A stretch of DNA of 63,154 nucleotides from contig CALRDL010000003.1 in NCBI GenBank assembly GCA_943354905.1, positions 1-63,154 of the forward strand, in the 5' to 3' direction. Made by a program: the position numbers and the translations under genes. The notes under the pieces were generated by a model that worked only from the letters and a program-made list of their open reading frames with translations, searched no databases and was not told the origin of the DNA. Position 1 is the first letter of the stretch; each line of letters opens with the position of its first letter. The stretch is from Candidatus Nomurabacteria bacterium. Its GTDB lineage: Bacteria; Patescibacteriota; Minisyncoccia; Phycocordibacterales; UBA9973. Shown here one piece after another: positions 19,163 to 63,154 of this stretch.

Positions 19163-19800
19163 TAAAATTCTTCTTCTTTGCCTATTTCTAAATTTTTGAA
19201 ACTAATACCCAATTCTTTCAAGAAATTTTCTGGATTTTTCCAGATGAATGATGCCCAACTATGAATAAAACCATCGTGCACAGGAAAAACTATTCTTGGA
19301 TTAATATTTTTTGCATAATTAATCGCCTCCCCTATTTTCATCCACGGACCAGCCGTAGGAAGAGCGAGAATATCCACATCATGATCTGGGTAGTTAAAAG
19401 CATCTCCGGCATAGCACAAATTATCTATCATATAACCTGTATTCTGAACCTGTTTCATTGTGATATAAGTTTCTGCATGCAAATTACCAAAACCCACAAT
19501 CTGTACATCTTTAAAATCGTACTTCTGTCCCTCCTCTACTTTTGTATATTTAATATTTATTTCATCAAGTATTTTTCCAACAGCAGTATTTGTTATTATT
19601 GTGGCAGTAGGGTTATTTTCTAAAACTATCTTCAATGAGTCTATGTGCAAGTGATCAGGATGTTCATGAGTAATCAAAACTAGATCAATGTTCTTTTCTT
19701 CATTTTGTAGAGTTGAAAAAGAACCAGGATCAGTCATAACCCTCACCCCTATTTTAGGCTCCACCACAAAACAACAATGCCCAAGCTTTTTAATCTTCAT
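19162..19800 (-). CDS. MBL-fold metallo-hydrolase
   Basis: ITHEHPDHLH motif. ATGA overlap with the ileS stop. Confidence 0.8.
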   Translation of the reverse strand: MKIKKLGHCCFVVEPKIGVRVMTDPGSFSTLQNEEKNIDLVLITHEHPDHLHIDSLKIVLENNPTATIITNTAVGKILDEINIKYTKVEEGQKYDFKDVQIVGFGNLHAETYITMKQVQNTGYMIDNLCYAGDAFNYPDHDVDILALPTAGPWMKIGEAINYAKNINPRIVFPVHDGFIHSWASFIWKNPENFLKELGISFKNLEIGKEEEF

Positions 19801-22800
19801 ATTTTTATTTTAGCAATTTCTACTTTGAATACCAAATTGTCTACTTTAACTTCCTGCCCGCCATTACCTTTGAATTCTATTTTAGAAACTAGAACAGTTT
19901 TTTTCATATCTGCTTCAAATTTTTGAATCAATTCTTTGCCTTTTCCATCGGTTTCAAAAGAAATAGACACTATTTCACTCGGAGTCAATCCGAAATTCTT
20001 TCGCATATCTTGCAAAGCTCGCACAAGCTCGCGATAATTTCCTTCTTGTTTTAATTCAAAAGTTATTTCATCATCAAGCAAGACTTTTGATTCAAGATTT
20101 TTATTTTCTTTAACTTCTTTTACATTTAATTCGTCTTTAATTAGTTCTATGTATTCTATGCCTAGTGAAAAATCTTTTATTTCTAATTTGGAAAGTGGTT
20201 GACGAACGGCTATTTTAGCTTTTTGTCTAGCTTCGAGACCTAGAGAAACGACATCTCTCACAATCTGCATATTTTTCAATATTGCGTCTTCTTTGTGGCC
20301 AAAAATATCAAAAATACTTTTTGATATTTTTGGCCACTCTGCCAAGTGCACACTCTGTGTGTCACTTTCATTTTTTAATTTCAACCAAATATCCTCAGCA
20401 GTAAATGGAGCAAATGGAGCAAATAATTTTGCAAGAGTTTTCAAAACAAAATACAAAGTTTGTTTTGCCTCTACGTCTCCTTCTTTGATTCTTTCACGAG
20501 AACGACGCAGATACCAAGTCGAAAGATCTCCAATAAAATCTCGTACCGCACGAACTGGTTCGAGAAGTTTATAACTATCCAAATTTTCGGTAGAAATTTT
20601 TATAAGTTCATTTAGTCTAGCCACAATCCAAGCATCTAAAATGTTTTCTGACTTTTTATATTCCAACTTTTCTAATTCTTGATCTCGATATAATTCATAA
20701 AACGCCAAGACGTTATAAAGCAAGCTAAAAACTTGCTGTTGAAGAAGAGAGACAGTTTTCTCATCAAAGTTTTTTGATTCACCGGGTTGATTCACAGAAT
20801 ACATCCAGAGACGTAAAGTGTCGACACCATATTTATTCATCATCTCCCAAGGATCAACAATATTTCCTATGGATTTAGACATTTTCTTGCCTTGAGCATC
20901 AAGCAAATGCCCAAGACAAATCACATTTTTATACGCCTTTCCTCGACCAACAAGCACTCCAATCGCATGCAAAGTGTAGAACCAGCCACGAGTTTGGTCT
21001 ATAGCTTCTGAGATAAAATCCGCGGGAAAACCCGACCCATCTACCCATTTTTTATTTTCAAAAGGATAATGATCCTGAGCAAAAGGCATACAACCAGAAT
21101 CAAACCAGACATCCATCACTTCTTTTGTGCGGGTCATATCGCCACCACAACTACACTCTAAATTAATTTCATCAATAAATGGTTTGTGTAAATCTAATTC
21201 GTATTCAACATTATGTGGAAGGGGAATAAATTCATGTTCTCGGTGAAGTTCTCCTGTTTTATTTTTTATTTTCGAATGGAAAATTTCTAAAGAGCGAGCT
21301 TTATCAGCACCTTCAATCACGGCTGGAATTAATTCCAACGACAAACCATGCGAAACAATCAAAATAGTTTCATTTTTATATTTTTGATCGATATCATACA
21401 AAAATTCTCCAAAACGTCTCTTACCATCTTGAAAACTCTCCCCTCCTGGAATTTTAGTATCGAAAGTCCAAGTCTTACCCTCCATAAAATCCCAATAGTC
21501 TTGCACCGGACGTTCTCCGAATTCTCCAAATTCAAGTTCGTGTAGACGTTCATCAATAATGATATTTTCTTTTGGAAATCCTATTTTTTCTGCCACTATA
21601 TCTGCCGTTTCACGAGTTCGTAAAAATGGGGAACAGAAAATTTGAGTTATTTTTTCCTGCCTGCGCAGGCAGGTATTTTTCAAATGTTCCACAGTCTCGT
21701 GCACTTGCGATTTACCTTTTTCTGTCAAGTGATTTTTATTCCGATCGGAAGAATAAATATTTTTAGCATTATTTTCAGCTTCCCCATGACGCATCACGAA
21801 ATATTTATTTTTAGATTTCTTTGATTTATTTTTTAAATCTTCCAAACTTCCTACTACATGTCTCTTCTCGCACTTGCCGCAAATCCAAACAGGTAGTGGA
21901 GTTCCCCAATATCTCTCACGCGATATAGCCCAATCTTTTATTTCACGTAGCCATTCGCCAAAACGCCCATCTCGGATGTATGCTGGCTCCCAATTGATCG
22001 TCTTATTTTCTTCGATCATTTCTTTTTTTATTTTCGGATCCGACATACGGATATACCAAGAATCACGCGCATAGTATATGAGCGCAGTTTTGCAACGCCA
22101 ACAATGCGGGTAGCTATGTTTATAATTTTCTTGTTTAAAAAATAAATTTCGCTTTTTTAGATCTTCGATGATGTCTAGAGCTAGGGTTGGCTTACCCGGC
22201 CCACCAACAATACCGCCATCAACTTCTTTAACAAATCTACCTTCTAAAAATCCAGTGCCCGATAAAAATTTTCCATCAAGGCCGACGAGATGGTGTTTTG
22301 GTAAACCAACCTCTGTGCCTAACACAAAATCGTCCTGTCCATACATAACAGCTGTATGCACGATTCCCGTACCATCGGTAGTATTCACAAAATTTGCAGT
22401 ATAGACTTTATAAGCCTTATCCATTTTTGTTTTTTCACTTTCAGAAATAGTCTCTGCGAGATACGGAAAAAGTGGTTCGTATTCTAGCCCGACTAGATCT
22501 TTACCCTTAAATTCTGAAATTAATTCATAATTTTCTAGTAGAGATAATTTAGATTTTGCAAGAATATACACACCTCCAGACGATCTATAAATTCCATGGT
22601 CTTGTGGGGCATTTAAAACGACCACTATCTTTTCTCTTACTTTTACATAATCTATATCTTCCCCCACAGCCAAAGCAACATTCCCCGGCAATGTCCATGG
22701 TGTCGTCGTCCACGCAAGAATGTAAGTATTATCTTGTCCTTTTAATTTGAATTTAACATAAACCGATAAATCTTTCACATCTTCATATCCCTGAGCGAGT

Positions 22801-23384
22801 TCATGACTAGACAAAGCCGTCCCACATCTCGGACACCAAGGCACAACTTTATAATCTTTATACAAAAGTTTTTGTTCGTCGATTTTTTTTACCACACTCC
22901 AAAGAGATTCAATATAGTCGTTATGATAAGTAACATAAGCATTTTCTTGATCAGCCCAATATCCCATTCTTTGAGTAAAATCTTTCCATAAATCTATAAA
23001 TTCCCAAACACTGTCTTTGCAAAGTTTATTAAAAGCGGCTATGCCATAATTCTCGATATCATTTTTTGACTTAAAGCCAAGTTTTTTTTCTATTTGTAAT
23101 TCCACCGGAAGTCCGTGTGTATCCCAACCACCCTTCCTGTGTGCATGGAAGCCTTGCATAGTTTTGTATCTAGGTATTACATCTTTAAAAGAAAACGGCA
23201 CCATGGTGTGAAGAACCGGTTTAGAATTTGCTGTAACCGGTCCATCGTAAAAAACAAATTCCTTACCGCCCTCACGATTTTTAACTGATTTCTTAAAAAT
23301 TTTATTCTCACGCCAAAATTCCAAAACACGCTCTTCTCGAAGAGCTACCTCACTTTTGTTATTTTTTACATTTTCGTCTTGCAT
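19797..23384 (-). CDS. ileS: Isoleucyl-tRNA synthetase (type 2-like) with an inserted histidine-phosphatase domain
   Basis: KMSKS (GKKMSKSIGN), WCPRCGTAL, WAISRERYWGTPLP and DVWFDSG motifs. The likely start is MQDENVK at 23384. Aa 541-735 form a PGAM-like insert (MRHGEAENN...CSPFLRTRETA...IVSHG). Confidence 0.9.
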   Translation of the reverse strand: MQDENVKNNKSEVALREERVLEFWRENKIFKKSVKNREGGKEFVFYDGPVTANSKPVLHTMVPFSFKDVIPRYKTMQGFHAHRKGGWDTHGLPVELQIEKKLGFKSKNDIENYGIAAFNKLCKDSVWEFIDLWKDFTQRMGYWADQENAYVTYHNDYIESLWSVVKKIDEQKLLYKDYKVVPWCPRCGTALSSHELAQGYEDVKDLSVYVKFKLKGQDNTYILAWTTTPWTLPGNVALAVGEDIDYVKVREKIVVVLNAPQDHGIYRSSGGVYILAKSKLSLLENYELISEFKGKDLVGLEYEPLFPYLAETISESEKTKMDKAYKVYTANFVNTTDGTGIVHTAVMYGQDDFVLGTEVGLPKHHLVGLDGKFLSGTGFLEGRFVKEVDGGIVGGPGKPTLALDIIEDLKKRNLFFKQENYKHSYPHCWRCKTALIYYARDSWYIRMSDPKIKKEMIEENKTINWEPAYIRDGRFGEWLREIKDWAISRERYWGTPLPVWICGKCEKRHVVGSLEDLKNKSKKSKNKYFVMRHGEAENNAKNIYSSDRNKNHLTEKGKSQVHETVEHLKNTCLRRQEKITQIFCSPFLRTRETADIVAEKIGFPKENIIIDERLHELEFGEFGERPVQDYWDFMEGKTWTFDTKIPGGESFQDGKRRFGEFLYDIDQKYKNETILIVSHGLSLELIPAVIEGADKARSLEIFHSKIKNKTGELHREHEFIPLPHNVEYELDLHKPFIDEINLECSCGGDMTRTKEVMDVWFDSGCMPFAQDHYPFENKKWVDGSGFPADFISEAIDQTRGWFYTLHAIGVLVGRGKAYKNVICLGHLLDAQGKKMSKSIGNIVDPWEMMNKYGVDTLRLWMYSVNQPGESKNFDEKTVSLLQQQVFSLLYNVLAFYELYRDQELEKLEYKKSENILDAWIVARLNELIKISTENLDSYKLLEPVRAVRDFIGDLSTWYLRRSRERIKEGDVEAKQTLYFVLKTLAKLFAPFAPFTAEDIWLKLKNESDTQSVHLAEWPKISKSIFDIFGHKEDAILKNMQIVRDVVSLGLEARQKAKIAVRQPLSKLEIKDFSLGIEYIELIKDELNVKEVKENKNLESKVLLDDEITFELKQEGNYRELVRALQDMRKNFGLTPSEIVSISFETDGKGKELIQKFEADMKKTVLVSKIEFKGNGGQEVKVDNLVFKVEIAKIKI
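21656..21677. repeat. GC-rich palindromic element, family B (cctgcctgcgcaggcagg+tatt) inside ileS
   Basis: Perfect 18-nt palindrome. The identical 22-mer recurs at 34393-34414. Confidence 0.9.
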
Positions 23385-23406
23385 GTTTTTATAAATTTTT
23401 ATAAAT

Positions 23407-23590
23407 AAAAAAAACCCGTCCACATACAACAATAATAAAATTGTTATACAAGGACGAGTTTTTGACCCGTGGTACCACCTTTGTTACTTCTCATTTAATG
23501 GGTTCTACTTTCGACTAGGTCTTGCCTAGCGATTTCTTCCCGAAGCATGCCCACCATATTGGAGGACTCAGGAGTGATAACTCCTTCAAC
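23407..23590 (-). promoter_or_regulatory. T-box leader (tRNA-sensing riboswitch) of ileS with an intrinsic terminator
   Basis: The minus strand reads AACAAAGGUGGUACCACGG (reverse complement of 23467-23482), close to the T-box consensus. A long terminator hairpin with U8 follows (23407-23458). An upstream hairpin AGGAGU-UAUC-ACUCCU (23570-23585) contains an Ile AUC codon. Confidence 0.6.
23512..23531. repeat. Family C hairpin (stem-agg tcttg cct-stem) inside the T-box leader
   Basis: cgactagg-tcttg-cctagcg. Confidence 0.6.
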
Positions 23591-60192: not shown

Positions 60193-61725
60193 ATGAACAT
60201 AACATTGGTAACAATACTTATGAGCGCAGGCGCGCTTGTTTTGGGTATTGTAATAGGATACTTCCTTCGCGTATTGATAGCGCTTGGAAAAAGAAGGTCC
60301 ATCGAGATAGATATCAAACAAATGATGGTAGGGGCAAAAGAAGAAGCTCAGAGGATAACTGATGAAGCCAAAAAGCTCTCAGAAACCAAGTTCCTAGAGT
60401 TAAAAGAAGAGGAAAAGAAGAAAGAACAAGAGTTTAAGGAAAAGGACGTAAGACTTATTAAAAAAGATGAATTCTTAGATGCGCGTCAAGTAGAAATAGA
60501 CAAAGAAGTAGACAGTATAAAATTAAAAGTAGAAGAAATAAAAAAAATCCAAGAAAAAGTCTTGAAGATAGAAGATGAAAAGAGAACTGAACTCGAAAGA
60601 GTTTCAAAGTTGTCCGAAAATGAAGCCAAAGAAGAATTGTTAAAAGATATTGAGAAGAAATACGAAGAAGATATCTTAGTTAGAATTCAAAAACTTGAAA
60701 ATACTAATGAGGAAAAACTAGATCGTCGAGCAAAAGACATCTTGGCGACAAGTATCCAACGTCTAGCTTCCAGTACAGCATCCGAACTCATGACTACTGT
60801 CGTTGCTATACCAAACAACGAAATCAAAGGCAAAATCATTGGGAAAGAAGGACGAAATATTCGCGCTTTTGAAAGAGCCTCTGGAGTTGAGCTCATTGTC
60901 GATGATACTCCGGGGTCTATTGTTATCTCTTCTTTCGATCCGATTCGCCGACAAGTCGCTCGCCTAGCCCTCGAGAATCTAATCCTAGATGGCAGAATTC
61001 AGCCAGCCAAAATAGAAGAATTAGTCGATAAAGCCAAAGAAGAAATAAATAAAATAATCAAAGAAAAAGGTGAGCAAGCTGTTTATGAATGTGGGATTTT
61101 CAACTTCGATCCACGCATAGTCGCCATAATCGGACGTCTATATTTTCGTACAAGTTACGGTCAAAATGTCCTCCAGCACTCCATCGAGATGACTCACATA
61201 GCTGGAATGCTCGCTGAAGAACTCGGTGCGGATGTAGCTATAGCCAAAGCTGGTGCATTGGTCCACGACATAGGTAAAGCTCTCGACCACGAAGTCCAAG
61301 GCACTCACATAGAGATAGGTATGAGAATTTTGCAGAAATTTGGGGCAGACGAACGCATAATCACGGCTATGAAGTCCCACCACGAAGATTATCCTTATGA
61401 AACAATAGAGTCAATCATTGTCCAGACAGCTGATGCTATATCTGGAGGCCGTCCTGGAGCTCGCCGAGATTCAGTAGAAAATTATTTAAAAAGATTACAA
61501 GAACTTGAAGCATTGGTAAACGCCTTCCCTGCTGTCGAAAAATCATACGCTCTTCAAGCTGGACGTGAAATAAGAATTTTTGTTACACCTGATAAAATTT
61601 CTGACGCTGAAGCTAAACTCATGGCTCGTGATATCGCTCTCAAAATAGAACAAGAATTAAAATACCCAGGTGAAATCAAAGTCACCATGATCCGCGAAAC
61701 TAGGATTATCGAATACGCGAGATAA
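60193..61725 (+). CDS. rny: Ribonuclease Y
   Basis: N-terminal TM helix, coiled coil, KH (GKIIGKEGRNIR) and HD domain (HDIGK). Confidence 0.9.
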   Translation: MNITLVTILMSAGALVLGIVIGYFLRVLIALGKRRSIEIDIKQMMVGAKEEAQRITDEAKKLSETKFLELKEEEKKKEQEFKEKDVRLIKKDEFLDARQVEIDKEVDSIKLKVEEIKKIQEKVLKIEDEKRTELERVSKLSENEAKEELLKDIEKKYEEDILVRIQKLENTNEEKLDRRAKDILATSIQRLASSTASELMTTVVAIPNNEIKGKIIGKEGRNIRAFERASGVELIVDDTPGSIVISSFDPIRRQVARLALENLILDGRIQPAKIEELVDKAKEEINKIIKEKGEQAVYECGIFNFDPRIVAIIGRLYFRTSYGQNVLQHSIEMTHIAGMLAEELGADVAIAKAGALVHDIGKALDHEVQGTHIEIGMRILQKFGADERIITAMKSHHEDYPYETIESIIVQTADAISGGRPGARRDSVENYLKRLQELEALVNAFPAVEKSYALQAGREIRIFVTPDKISDAEAKLMARDIALKIEQELKYPGEIKVTMIRETRIIEYAR

Positions 61726-61728
61726 ACC

Positions 61729-61749
61729 CATCAAGGTTAAACCTTGATG
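61729..61749. repeat. Hairpin repeat catcaaggt-taa-accttgatg (copy 1); also the rny terminator position
   Basis: 9-bp arms. Related copies at 62266-62282 and 62298-62316. Confidence 0.8.
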
Positions 61750-61797
61750 TTAAACGAAAGAAGCCCCGTGGCGACTTCCGTCTGCCACAGGGCCAGA

Positions 61798-62181
61798 TTA
61801 CTTTTCGATGCGAATCAAAAAAACGGTCTTCACCGTCCTCTGATTCGCGAGAAAAACGATTTCTCCTTTTTTTATGGGGAGGGAGAAACCCCCCAGAAGT
61901 TGTTTGCGCTCCACAACGCAAGCAACTTTAACTTCCCGCCAAACGGGAATGTTAACTCCAGTCCGGAGAGGAAAAATTCCCCCGAAGAAATCGATTCTCT
62001 TTACGATCACGCCCCCCTCAAACGAGAGGCGCAGTTTGCTGTTTACCCACTCGGCAGTGGGTTCGAGAAAGAATTCCTTCTTCTCGAGACGCACCCCCAT
62101 GCCGGACTCAGCATGGAAAGGATGAGTCTCCTGCCCGGACAAAATCCCGGGCAACAAAACCAAAATAAAAAGTCTCATCAT
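61798..62181 (-). CDS. Small secreted protein in a GC-rich islet
   Basis: ATG preceded by AAAGGAGG. Signal-peptide-like MMRLFILVLLPGILSG. Local GC is clearly above that of its neighbours. Confidence 0.6.
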   Translation of the reverse strand: MMRLFILVLLPGILSGQETHPFHAESGMGVRLEKKEFFLEPTAEWVNSKLRLSFEGGVIVKRIDFFGGIFPLRTGVNIPVWREVKVACVVERKQLLGGFSLPIKKGEIVFLANQRTVKTVFLIRIEK

Positions 62182-62265
62182 GCCACCTCCTTTCTTTTTA
62201 AATTTTTTGTACTACTCAAAAAGAGCATACACCAAACCACCTATAAATATCAAGTCTTTTCACCC

Positions 62266-62282
62266 TCAAGGTGAAACCTTGA
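62266..62282. repeat. Hairpin repeat tcaaggt-gaa-accttga (copy 2)
   Basis: Same arms as copies 1 and 3. Confidence 0.8.
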
Positions 62283-62297
62283 TCTTTTTTTCTTGTC

Positions 62298-62316
62298 ATC
62301 AAGGTGAAACCTTGAT
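62298..62316. repeat. Hairpin repeat atcaaggt-gaa-accttgat (copy 3), 6 nt upstream of the RAYT-like gene
   Basis: 8-bp arms. Confidence 0.8.
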
Positions 62317-62321
62317 ATGCT

Positions 62322-62993
62322 GTGGATATGCAAAGAAAAGTGAAATTTGAAACAGGAGAGATATATCACGTCTACAATCGTGGCGTTGAAAAAAGAATCC
62401 TCTTCCAAAACCATTATGAATACAGGAGATTTATGGCTTTGCTATATGTTTCGAACAGCACCAAGCAAATACATCTGAGTAACACAGCTCACAACGACAA
62501 CATCGAAAAAATATTTGAAAAAGAAAGAGGTGAGCCAATAGTCGCCATAGGAGCCTATTGCCTAATGCCAAACCATTTCCACCTTCTGCTCACTCCACTC
62601 GTCGAAGGCGGAATATCAAAGTTTATGCAAAAAGTCCAGACTGGGTATTCTATGTACTTCAATAAAAAACATTCTAGAGTTGGTTCTCTATTCCAAGGTA
62701 CATTCAAATCAAAACATATAAATAAAAATGAGTATTTGATGTATGTCTATTCCTATATTCACCTGAATCCTGCAAAATTAAAGAATAAAGAGTGGAAAAT
62801 ACAACCAAATTCTTTTATAAGTGATTTAAAAGATTTTATCAACGAATACCCCTACTCTAGTTTGCAAGAATATCTATTAAAAAAATATACACTCATTAAT
62901 TCAAAACCTTTTCCTATAACTCGAGATCAGATTTGTGACTATACTTCAATGCTAGATGACTATAATGAAGCTTTTTTACCTAAAAATAAATAA
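62322..62993 (+). mobile_element. REP-associated tyrosine transposase (RAYT)/IS200-like Y1 HUH transposase
   Basis: YHVYNRGVEKRILF, HUH motif CLMPNHFHLLL, and catalytic Tyr region YSYIHLNPAK. Confidence 0.8.
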
Positions 62994-63154
62994 CGAGGTG
63001 CGGGCCGTATGGCCTCATCTAATAATGTTACCAAGAATTAATCTGGGCGGATTAAGTTTTTAATACAAAAAGTATATCATAAATGCCATTTGGAAAGCTT
63101 TTGGATTTTGTGTACAAGCTCATCAATTTCTTTCCTGAGAGCAAATGGATCGAG

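Follow-up and report, generated by a model that had tools for sequence, protein, structure and literature searches.

Introduction

REP/RAYT systems pair a repetitive extragenic palindrome (REP) with a REP-associated tyrosine transposase (RAYT). To our knowledge, they have been characterised almost entirely in Proteobacteria, and surveys reach Cyanobacteria and Bacteroidetes. In the REPtron of Escherichia coli (Nunvar 2010, PMC2817692; Messing 2012, PMC3479197), the TnpA_REP enzyme requires a 5′ GT[AG]G foot for binding and cleavage. A further described class is TnpA_Y1 subclass 2.4 (Quentin et al. 2018, PMC6006769), which is RAYT group 4 of Bertels et al. 2017 (PMC5581495). The repeats flanking group 4 genes are low-copy, about 14 per replicon (PMC5581495). 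Subclass 2.4 is described as having gene-flanking REPs, distantly related copies per genome, and in-frame REPs in tnpA_REP between the HUH (His-hydrophobe-His) and Tyr motifs; in its REPs, the bottom of the stem is G-C-rich or there is a GT[AG]G/C[TC]AC "double foot" (PMC6006769). Patescibacteria are not named in that survey, and our literature search found no paper on RAYTs in Patescibacteria or the candidate phyla radiation (CPR). Here, we analyze a 63,154-nt stretch of DNA from a Candidatus Nomurabacteria bacterium (the window), at the right-hand end of which lie a gene for a Y1 HUH protein and several copies of a short hairpin that appears to be its cognate REP.

The window is the entire contig C3 of a 750,840-bp genome (31 contigs, 96% complete, G+C about 0.36). 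Below, C-numbers denote contigs of this host genome, L-numbers the loci of relatives, and G000-G030 the genomes of relatives. Its closest matches in the protein databases belong to metagenome bins of Nomurabacteria and Paceibacteria, which makes the host an ultra-small bacterium of the Patescibacteria (CPR). Toward the contig end, rny is followed by a hairpin, a small minus-strand open reading frame (ORF), a pair of hairpins, the Y1 ORF, and the end of an insertion sequence (IS). We read this locus as a REP/RAYT system, that is, a TnpA_REP-type Y1 HUH nuclease with its cognate REP-like hairpin, and we give this reading a probability of roughly 80%.

The Y1 HUH protein

The ORF at 62322-62993 encodes 223 amino acids (aa) from a GTG at 62322. 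The ATG at 62328, which gives 221 aa, is the likelier start, as in the database protein and in the orthologues. The ORF carries the motifs YHVYNRG, MPNHFHLLL, and YSYIHLNPAK, and it matches the Y1_Tnp family PF01797 with 37.8 bits (cut-off 23; E 2.4e-9). An AlphaFold2 model built on a shallow alignment had a pLDDT of 53 and was discarded; a deeper alignment of 117 sequences gave a model with a pLDDT of 91 and a pTM of 0.89. Foldseek places 4ER8_A, which is E. coli TnpA_REP with a REP hairpin, first among the PDB matches of this model (E 2.7e-6, TM 0.68 on target). The ISDra2, IS608, and IS200 transposases come next, with E values near 1e-3 (1.2e-3 or worse for ISDra2 and IS608). As modelled, the fold is nearer to TnpA_REP than to the IS200/IS605 transposases.

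In the profile alignment to 4ER8, H83-F84-H85 falls on H59-M60-H61, Y143 on the catalytic Y115, and N147 on the metal ligand N119, the roles of the 4ER8 residues being those given in PMC3479197. H83, H85, Y143, and N147 are invariant or nearly so across the 117 relatives. No equivalents of H123 and E161 were identified in the alignment to E. coli TnpA_REP. The original prediction, made from the letters of the window, of a RAYT-like HUH ORF is thus upheld by the Pfam match, the best fold match, and the aligned catalytic residues: judged by sequence and model, the gene encodes a TnpA_REP/RAYT-type protein.

Searches of the PDB with sequences instead of the model were less telling. The single sequence found nothing, and a profile of the 117 sequences gave weak matches to the ISDra2 transposase and 4ER8. 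A match to PDS5 from a 25-sequence profile was judged spurious.

The Cognate Hairpin and Its Genomic Copies

The family hairpin is ATCAAGGT-GAA-ACCTTGAT, a 19-21-nt palindrome with the extended form (C)ATCAAGGT-GAA-ACCTTGAT(G). The copy proximal to the gene is ATCAAGGTGAAACCTTGAT, the distal upstream copy is TCAAGGTGAAACCTTGA (TCAAGGT-GAA-ACCTTGA), and the third copy is CATCAAGGTTAAACCTTGATG, with arms and loop CATCAAGGT-T-AAACCTTGATG. Three such copies had been claimed from the letters alone, and all three are present (Table 1). A search of the window with the 17-nt pattern, allowing up to 2 mismatches, finds these three sites, where shuffled sequences lead one to expect 0.02. Folded as single-stranded DNA (ssDNA), the three hairpins have energies of -5.2 to -7.9 kcal/mol and z scores of -2.7 to -5.4 versus shuffled controls; the third copy gives -7.9 kcal/mol (z -5.4) and the proximal copy -6.2 kcal/mol (z -5.2). 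Upstream of the GTG at 62322, the proximal copy lies at about 5-6 nt, the distal copy at 40 nt, and the third copy at 573 nt; the gap between the proximal copy and the ATG at 62328 is 11 nt. The third copy starts 3 nt past the rny stop, between the convergent rny (plus strand) and small ORF (minus strand), and is terminator-like on the minus strand.

Genome-wide, ATCAAGGTGAAACCTTGAT has 10 sites at up to 2 mismatches, and a reversed control pattern has 0. Three of the 10 are found no farther than 600 nt from the gene (P about 3e-6, with one site there by construction), which agrees with the earlier claim that the hairpin is dedicated to this gene. The seven distant copies turned up by the census that the original prediction had called for include several in frame in housekeeping genes. 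One is in frame in UvrC, one in frame in TsaD, one in a 205-aa ORF, two form an inverted doublet resembling a REPIN (REP doublet forming hairpins) at C1:79728/79752, and two are intergenic. In addition, an ORF resembling a heavy-metal P-type ATPase by sequence contains a degenerate hairpin doublet in frame. The family is absent from the rest of the window beyond the local cluster.

Two of these sites deserve a closer description. The copy in the 205-aa ORF (C25:4335-4353) is in frame and sits 541 nt upstream of a paralogue of another family, at C25:4894-5586. The tsaD hairpin, at C9:19152-19180, lies within the loop KTHQGETLMCS. Among congeners (L111-L116), the hairpin-bearing TsaD loop varies in length and sequence, and some variants look palindrome-derived. 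This comparison covered nine loci, four of which were dropped since the wrong ORF had been picked; it showed a variable loop, and no clean empty site was demonstrable.

Paralogues and Their Hairpin Families

By tblastn, the genome has nine full-length paralogues, with pairwise identities of 27-74%, and one 3′ fragment. The best intragenomic protein match to the window gene has 49-50% identity. In a blind census of perfect hairpins, each paralogue, and the fragment as well, is bracketed by its own distinct hairpin family. Of 87 hairpin sites, 30 are no more than 700 nt away from their cognate gene, against 1 near a non-cognate gene, one site per family being there by construction. Three protein clades correspond to three hairpin styles; the clade of the window gene has a conserved hairpin tip, AGG-N5-CCT, and two sister families in the genome carry CCAC...GTGG. 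The host genome, 0.75 Mb in size, has ten such enzyme-hairpin pairs side by side, the window pair among them.

The pairing extends beyond this genome. Among 79 loci of other Patescibacteria species, an upstream hairpin is found in 66; the same core recurs at the stop codon in 51 of these 66 and occurs internally too in 11. In the host genome, the paralogues C12:1270-1959, C7:10968-11654, and C6:16728-17444 each contain a hairpin of their own, different in all three, which is in frame at the same point directly behind HUH and encodes the peptides SHMSDMW, SHKSDLW, and SPEESLRG, respectively. None of these three paralogues reaches the Y1_Tnp cut-off of Pfam. The RAYT gene of the window has no internal hairpin.

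The 3′ fragment, C15:13036-13362, is a 5′-truncated RAYT paralogue, of which only the last 108 aa remain, and it ends in the hairpin GCGTTAGGCAAGACCTAACGC. The GCGTTAGGCAAGACCTAACGC family is among the largest, with 15 sites. A truncated gene alongside a large family suggests a hairpin population that outlives its enzyme gene.

Other palindromes are scattered through the window, and the gene had been proposed as a driver for one or more of these families as well. That part of the proposal is unlikely to hold: the other palindromes belong to families of other paralogues or to families for which the assembly has no Y1 gene, i.e., those of CTGCCTGCGCAGGCAG and TCCCCCTACATAGGGGGA. The window gene is therefore a candidate driver of its own family only. 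CTGCCTGCGCAGGCAG has 29 sites genome-wide at up to 2 mismatches, 25 of them within long ORFs.

Conservation at the Locus and the Question of Transposition

Orthologues of the RAYT are found in L009 (87% protein identity), L010 (76%), L013 (68%), and L029 (62%). In L009 and L010, the RAYT again follows rny, the small ORF, and two hairpins, in that order. In these two, the rny protein shares 97-98% identity with its counterpart in the window at an rny dS of about 1-2, i.e., with synonymous sites near saturation, and the dN/dS of the RAYT is 0.03-0.09. The position downstream of rny is fixed in at least three lineages. An order kept at such a dS, together with such a dN/dS, argues that the gene is resident, vertically inherited at the locus, and constrained.

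The hairpin has been kept along with the gene. In orthologues of 62-87% identity it occupies an unchanged promoter position, and its tip, AGG(T/G)-GAA-(A/C)CCT, persists; the lower stem varies by compensatory pairs only. Both partners have changed in 4 of 8 stem pairs and a single partner in none, a score that was not reached in any of 500 shuffles. Different REPs in relatives had been named in advance as a finding that would count against a RAYT. The hairpin does differ among the orthologues, by compensatory pairs, which is what RAYT-REP co-evolution leads one to expect, and the objection accordingly loses its force. An inverted hairpin also lies 3′ of the RAYT in L010 (+14), L013 (+21), and L029, at 14-21 nt past the stop or overlapping it.

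The third copy behaves differently. Its site is without a hairpin in both syntenic relatives, L009 and L010, so the copy was most simply gained in the window's lineage. Apart from this gain, the locus gives no direct hint that hairpins have spread recently.

The gene itself does not appear to transpose, as its hairpin family has only this one gene, its site downstream of rny is fixed, and selection on it is purifying. The alternative that survives best nevertheless takes the locus for a minimal IS200-like IS, in which a hairpin-promoter-gene-hairpin unit of about 0.75 kb moves whole and the dispersed hairpins are scars or derivatives resembling miniature inverted-repeat transposable elements (MITEs). 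Orthologues and paralogues are indeed tightly bracketed by inverted copies of one hairpin, at the promoter and the stop codon; L013 and other orthologues lie in unrelated gene neighbourhoods; RAYT-like genes number 0-12 in the same-genus genomes (G000-G030), all of them intact; and the IS200/IS605 transposases are the next-best fold matches. An active IS, however, yields near-identical copies, whereas identity between any two copies here does not exceed 74%, and the window gene shares at most 50% with any other. The place downstream of rny, kept under the selection described above, also argues against a mobile unit. The same hairpin stands at both ends, with no distinct left and right ends, and the window copy is without one such "end" yet remains intact and conserved. 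The modelled fold, too, is the nearer to TnpA_REP. On this balance we hold a whole-unit IS to be unlikely, and retain the REP/RAYT reading.

In G007, two RAYT matches of equal score lie 2.3 kb apart (G007 C3:96847 and C3:99109), possibly a tandem duplicate.

A Hairpin in the Putative Promoter

The hairpin core at 62299-62315 is the exact 17-nt spacer of the sigma-70-like promoter TTGTCA-N17-TATGCT. The -10 hexamer ends 6 nt ahead of the ATG at 62328, from which a leaderless mRNA is predicted. The same layout of -35, 17-nt hairpin, -10, 6 nt, and start can be read directly in L009, L010, L013, L123, and L029. In each of the nine paralogues, too, a TG-extended -10 comes after a hairpin, and the leader is very short. 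The distal hairpin with its T-run is kept in L009, L010, and L013. It looks like an intrinsic terminator, which would insulate the RAYT promoter from upstream transcription. With the proximal hairpin as promoter spacer and the distal one as insulator, expression is probably kept low and possibly self-regulated; the transcript would be leaderless and self-limited. A hairpin as promoter spacer suggests a simple self-regulation circuit.

Weighing the Readings

Several observations weigh against the REP/RAYT reading. The protein scores 47.7 bits with NF047646, the NCBIfam REP_Tyr_transpos equivalog model, below its cut-off of 80; by this measure the gene is a relative of the curated set and no equivalog. 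E values in the PDB sequence searches are marginal only (0.05-0.12). A gene number of 0-12 is patchier than that of the classic RAYTs, which are single-copy and vertically inherited. The flanks of the 10 hairpin copies have only the palindrome (C)AT...AT(G) in common, with neither a GTAG/GTGG foot nor a conserved asymmetric flank motif around them. Ten sites is a low copy number, also relative to Proteobacteria. The covariation comes with the caveat that the hairpins were selected for pairing, and it would equally fit the double-stranded site of a dimeric protein. Four lake metagenome runs showed no excision or empty-site junctions, only an assembly-graph branch at the IS end, and a search of RNA runs met the locus in none of them. 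Lastly, a downstream inverted cognate hairpin is absent from the window copy up to the contig end at 63154. The end of the IS lies 12 nt past the RAYT stop, just short of the position of the inverted hairpin in orthologues, and may have displaced it; L009 has no downstream hairpin yet has no IS there, so the loss may predate the IS insertion.

The reading that survives least well is a purely regulatory one, in which the palindromes are an operator together with terminators or mRNA stabilisers, read by another factor or by a Y1 protein acting as repressor only, with the copies not mobilised and the enzyme domesticated. It would account for a hairpin that is an exact promoter spacer, for the terminator-like distal and third copies, for the low copy numbers, for a covariation that suits a dimeric double-strand binder equally well, and for the lack of a cleavage-guide motif beside the hairpin, but it is very improbable, for the same 19-mer lies in frame within ORFs, UvrC and TsaD among them, where neither an operator nor a terminator would make sense, ten hairpin families are each paired with one Y1 paralogue, catalytic residues that a mere repressor would not need are (near-)invariant under purifying selection, and the third copy appears to have been gained in the window's lineage.

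Under the REP/RAYT reading, the enzyme would bind the hairpin in single-stranded DNA, for example in the lagging-strand template. Tyr143 would cut nearby, with His83, His85, and Asn147 holding the metal. Rejoining of strands would then spread or maintain solo hairpins and inverted doublets genome-wide, including in tolerant loops of protein genes.

A broader proposal is tentative, and we would sooner bet against it than for it. It is that Patescibacteria carry a distinct, undescribed TnpA_REP-like branch that reads guide-less, symmetric hairpins. The substrate would double as the 17-nt spacer of a leaderless promoter, that is, as an operator, and in this way govern spread. Up to a dozen co-evolving pairs per 0.5-0.8-Mb genome would be actively inserting hairpins into essential proteins, UvrC and TsaD among them, at loops that vary.

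Ten enzyme-hairpin pairs in 0.75 Mb amount to about one per 75 kb, and hairpins are tolerated in essential genes. Both are notable in genomes that are supposedly streamlined. The pairs would offer ten natural specificity variants in one cell, usable to learn how Y1 nucleases read hairpins. For annotation, the "transposase" labels on thousands of Patescibacteria proteins would mostly mark resident RAYT-like genes, not active IS.

Layout of the Locus and Its Neighbours

The features of the locus, and the palindromes of other families in the window, are collected in Table 1.

Table 1. Features of the RAYT-like locus and palindromes elsewhere in the window (positions in the 63,154-nt stretch).
Feature	Position	Strand	Basis or remark
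rny (RNase Y)	60193-61725	+	profile search of window proteins
Third cognate hairpin, 10-bp stem	61729-61749	.	pattern search and ssDNA fold
G+C-rich 127-aa ORF, signal-peptide-like N-terminus	61798-62181	-	ORF list; orphan neighbour of the RAYT system
Distal upstream hairpin and T-run, terminator-like	62266-62291 (hairpin 62266-62282, 7-bp stem)	+	pattern, fold, relatives
Sigma-70-like promoter TTGTCA-N17-TATGCT, TG-extended -10	62293-62321	+	promoter reading and relatives
Proximal cognate hairpin, reference copy of the family, 8-bp stem	62298-62316	.	pattern and ssDNA fold
RAYT-like Y1 HUH gene, 221 aa from ATG	62328-62993	+	Pfam, AlphaFold2 model, fold match
Codons of H83-F84-H85	62574-62582	+	
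Codon of Y143	62754-62756	+	
Codon of N147	62766-62768	+	
IS terminus and last 25 codons of rve/DDE transposase	63006-63154	-	multi-copy matches; weak rve profile match
Palindromes in 1211-aa ORF (19797-23432), superoxide dismutase, and trigger factor	21657, 34394, 55709		CTGCCTGCGCAGGCAG
Palindrome in PIF1-like helicase	24818		family of the C7 paralogue
Palindrome in RNase H	36721		family of the truncated C15 gene
Palindrome in RecJ	37382		TCCCCCTACATAGGGGGA

Between the third and distal hairpins, G+C is 0.47-0.52 across 61750-62260 versus about 0.36 genome-wide, and a single ORF lies there, on the minus strand. The original prediction saw a one-gene, GC-rich islet bracketed by hairpins. The high G+C is there; the bracketing is not conserved, given the missing third hairpin in L009 and L010. 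A hairpin-bounded cassette for the G+C-rich ORF is likewise ruled out, as the ORF is present in L009 without the left hairpin. The 127-aa ORF is single-copy, with a G+C at third codon positions (GC3) of 0.58 versus 0.33 in its neighbours (genome GC3 about 0.33). Searches of profile libraries gave no family match for it. Its one homologue, in L009, is at the same position and 68% identical, with a dN/dS of 0.21. By these measures the ORF is a fast-evolving, lineage-specific orphan and a neighbour of the RAYT system. At the equivalent spot, L010 has a 220-aa G+C-rich ORF (L010:864-1526) packed with G+C-rich hairpins. Whether the G+C-rich stretch might contain a structured RNA was also considered; across 61000-63154, Rfam matched nothing but a snoRNA, by chance and far sub-threshold. 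The stretch is single-copy and reads as a conserved small ORF.

The IS beyond the gene recurs elsewhere in the genome, with an identical copy at C6:1-149, one more where C9 ends, and, at C5:17080-18360, a full copy that is 79% identical (transposase of 378 aa). Three contigs break within this IS. Logan contigs branch at 63006-63035, where depth goes from 22 to 37. A multi-copy IS at 63006 thus explains the contig break. No cognate hairpin was found beside the other IS ends in the assembly.

Comparison with Known Systems

The IS200/IS605 transposases (IS608, ISDra2, IS200) share with the window protein the catalytic fold and motifs, as well as subterminal ssDNA hairpins, and in length the gene roughly equals a minimal IS200. 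In contrast to these elements, the locus has no identical copies and no tnpB, has the same hairpin at both ends, is fixed in its chromosomal position under purifying selection, and encodes a protein whose modelled fold is nearer to TnpA_REP.

Rickettsia palindromic elements (RPEs) are about 100-150 nt long. The hairpins described here are 19-21 nt, and each family has an identifiable cognate Y1 gene. What they have in common with RPEs and with REP insertions in coding genes (Di Nocera 2013, PMC3733652) is that short in-frame palindromes in housekeeping genes are translated as extra or replaced loop residues.

The likeness to the E. coli REPtron is in both partners. The Y1 HUH fold finds its best match in E. 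coli TnpA_REP (RAYT, YafM; 4ER8), with HUH, Tyr, and Asn aligned, and there is a single gene per hairpin family, flanked by cognate hairpins, with dispersed copies and some inverted doublets. The window protein is, however, only 14% identical to E. coli TnpA_REP and has about 55 extra C-terminal residues. Its hairpin is short and perfectly paired, without the GTAG foot and bulged stem of E. coli REPs, and has about 10 copies per family versus hundreds. Also unlike the REPtron, one hairpin is built into the promoter spacer, and there are ten pairs in a 0.75-Mb genome.

With subclass 2.4, the locus shares low-copy flanking repeats, distantly related copies, and a scattered taxonomy. The in-frame internal hairpin of that subclass is found in the C12, C7, and C6 paralogues and not in the window gene. 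Similarly, the window family is without a G-C-rich stem bottom or double foot, whereas its two CCAC...GTGG sister families have one. Likened by its described features, the locus thus resembles TnpA_Y1 subclass 2.4 minus the GT[AG]G foot. As a REP/RAYT-type locus, it is no new kind of element and extends a known system to another phylum.

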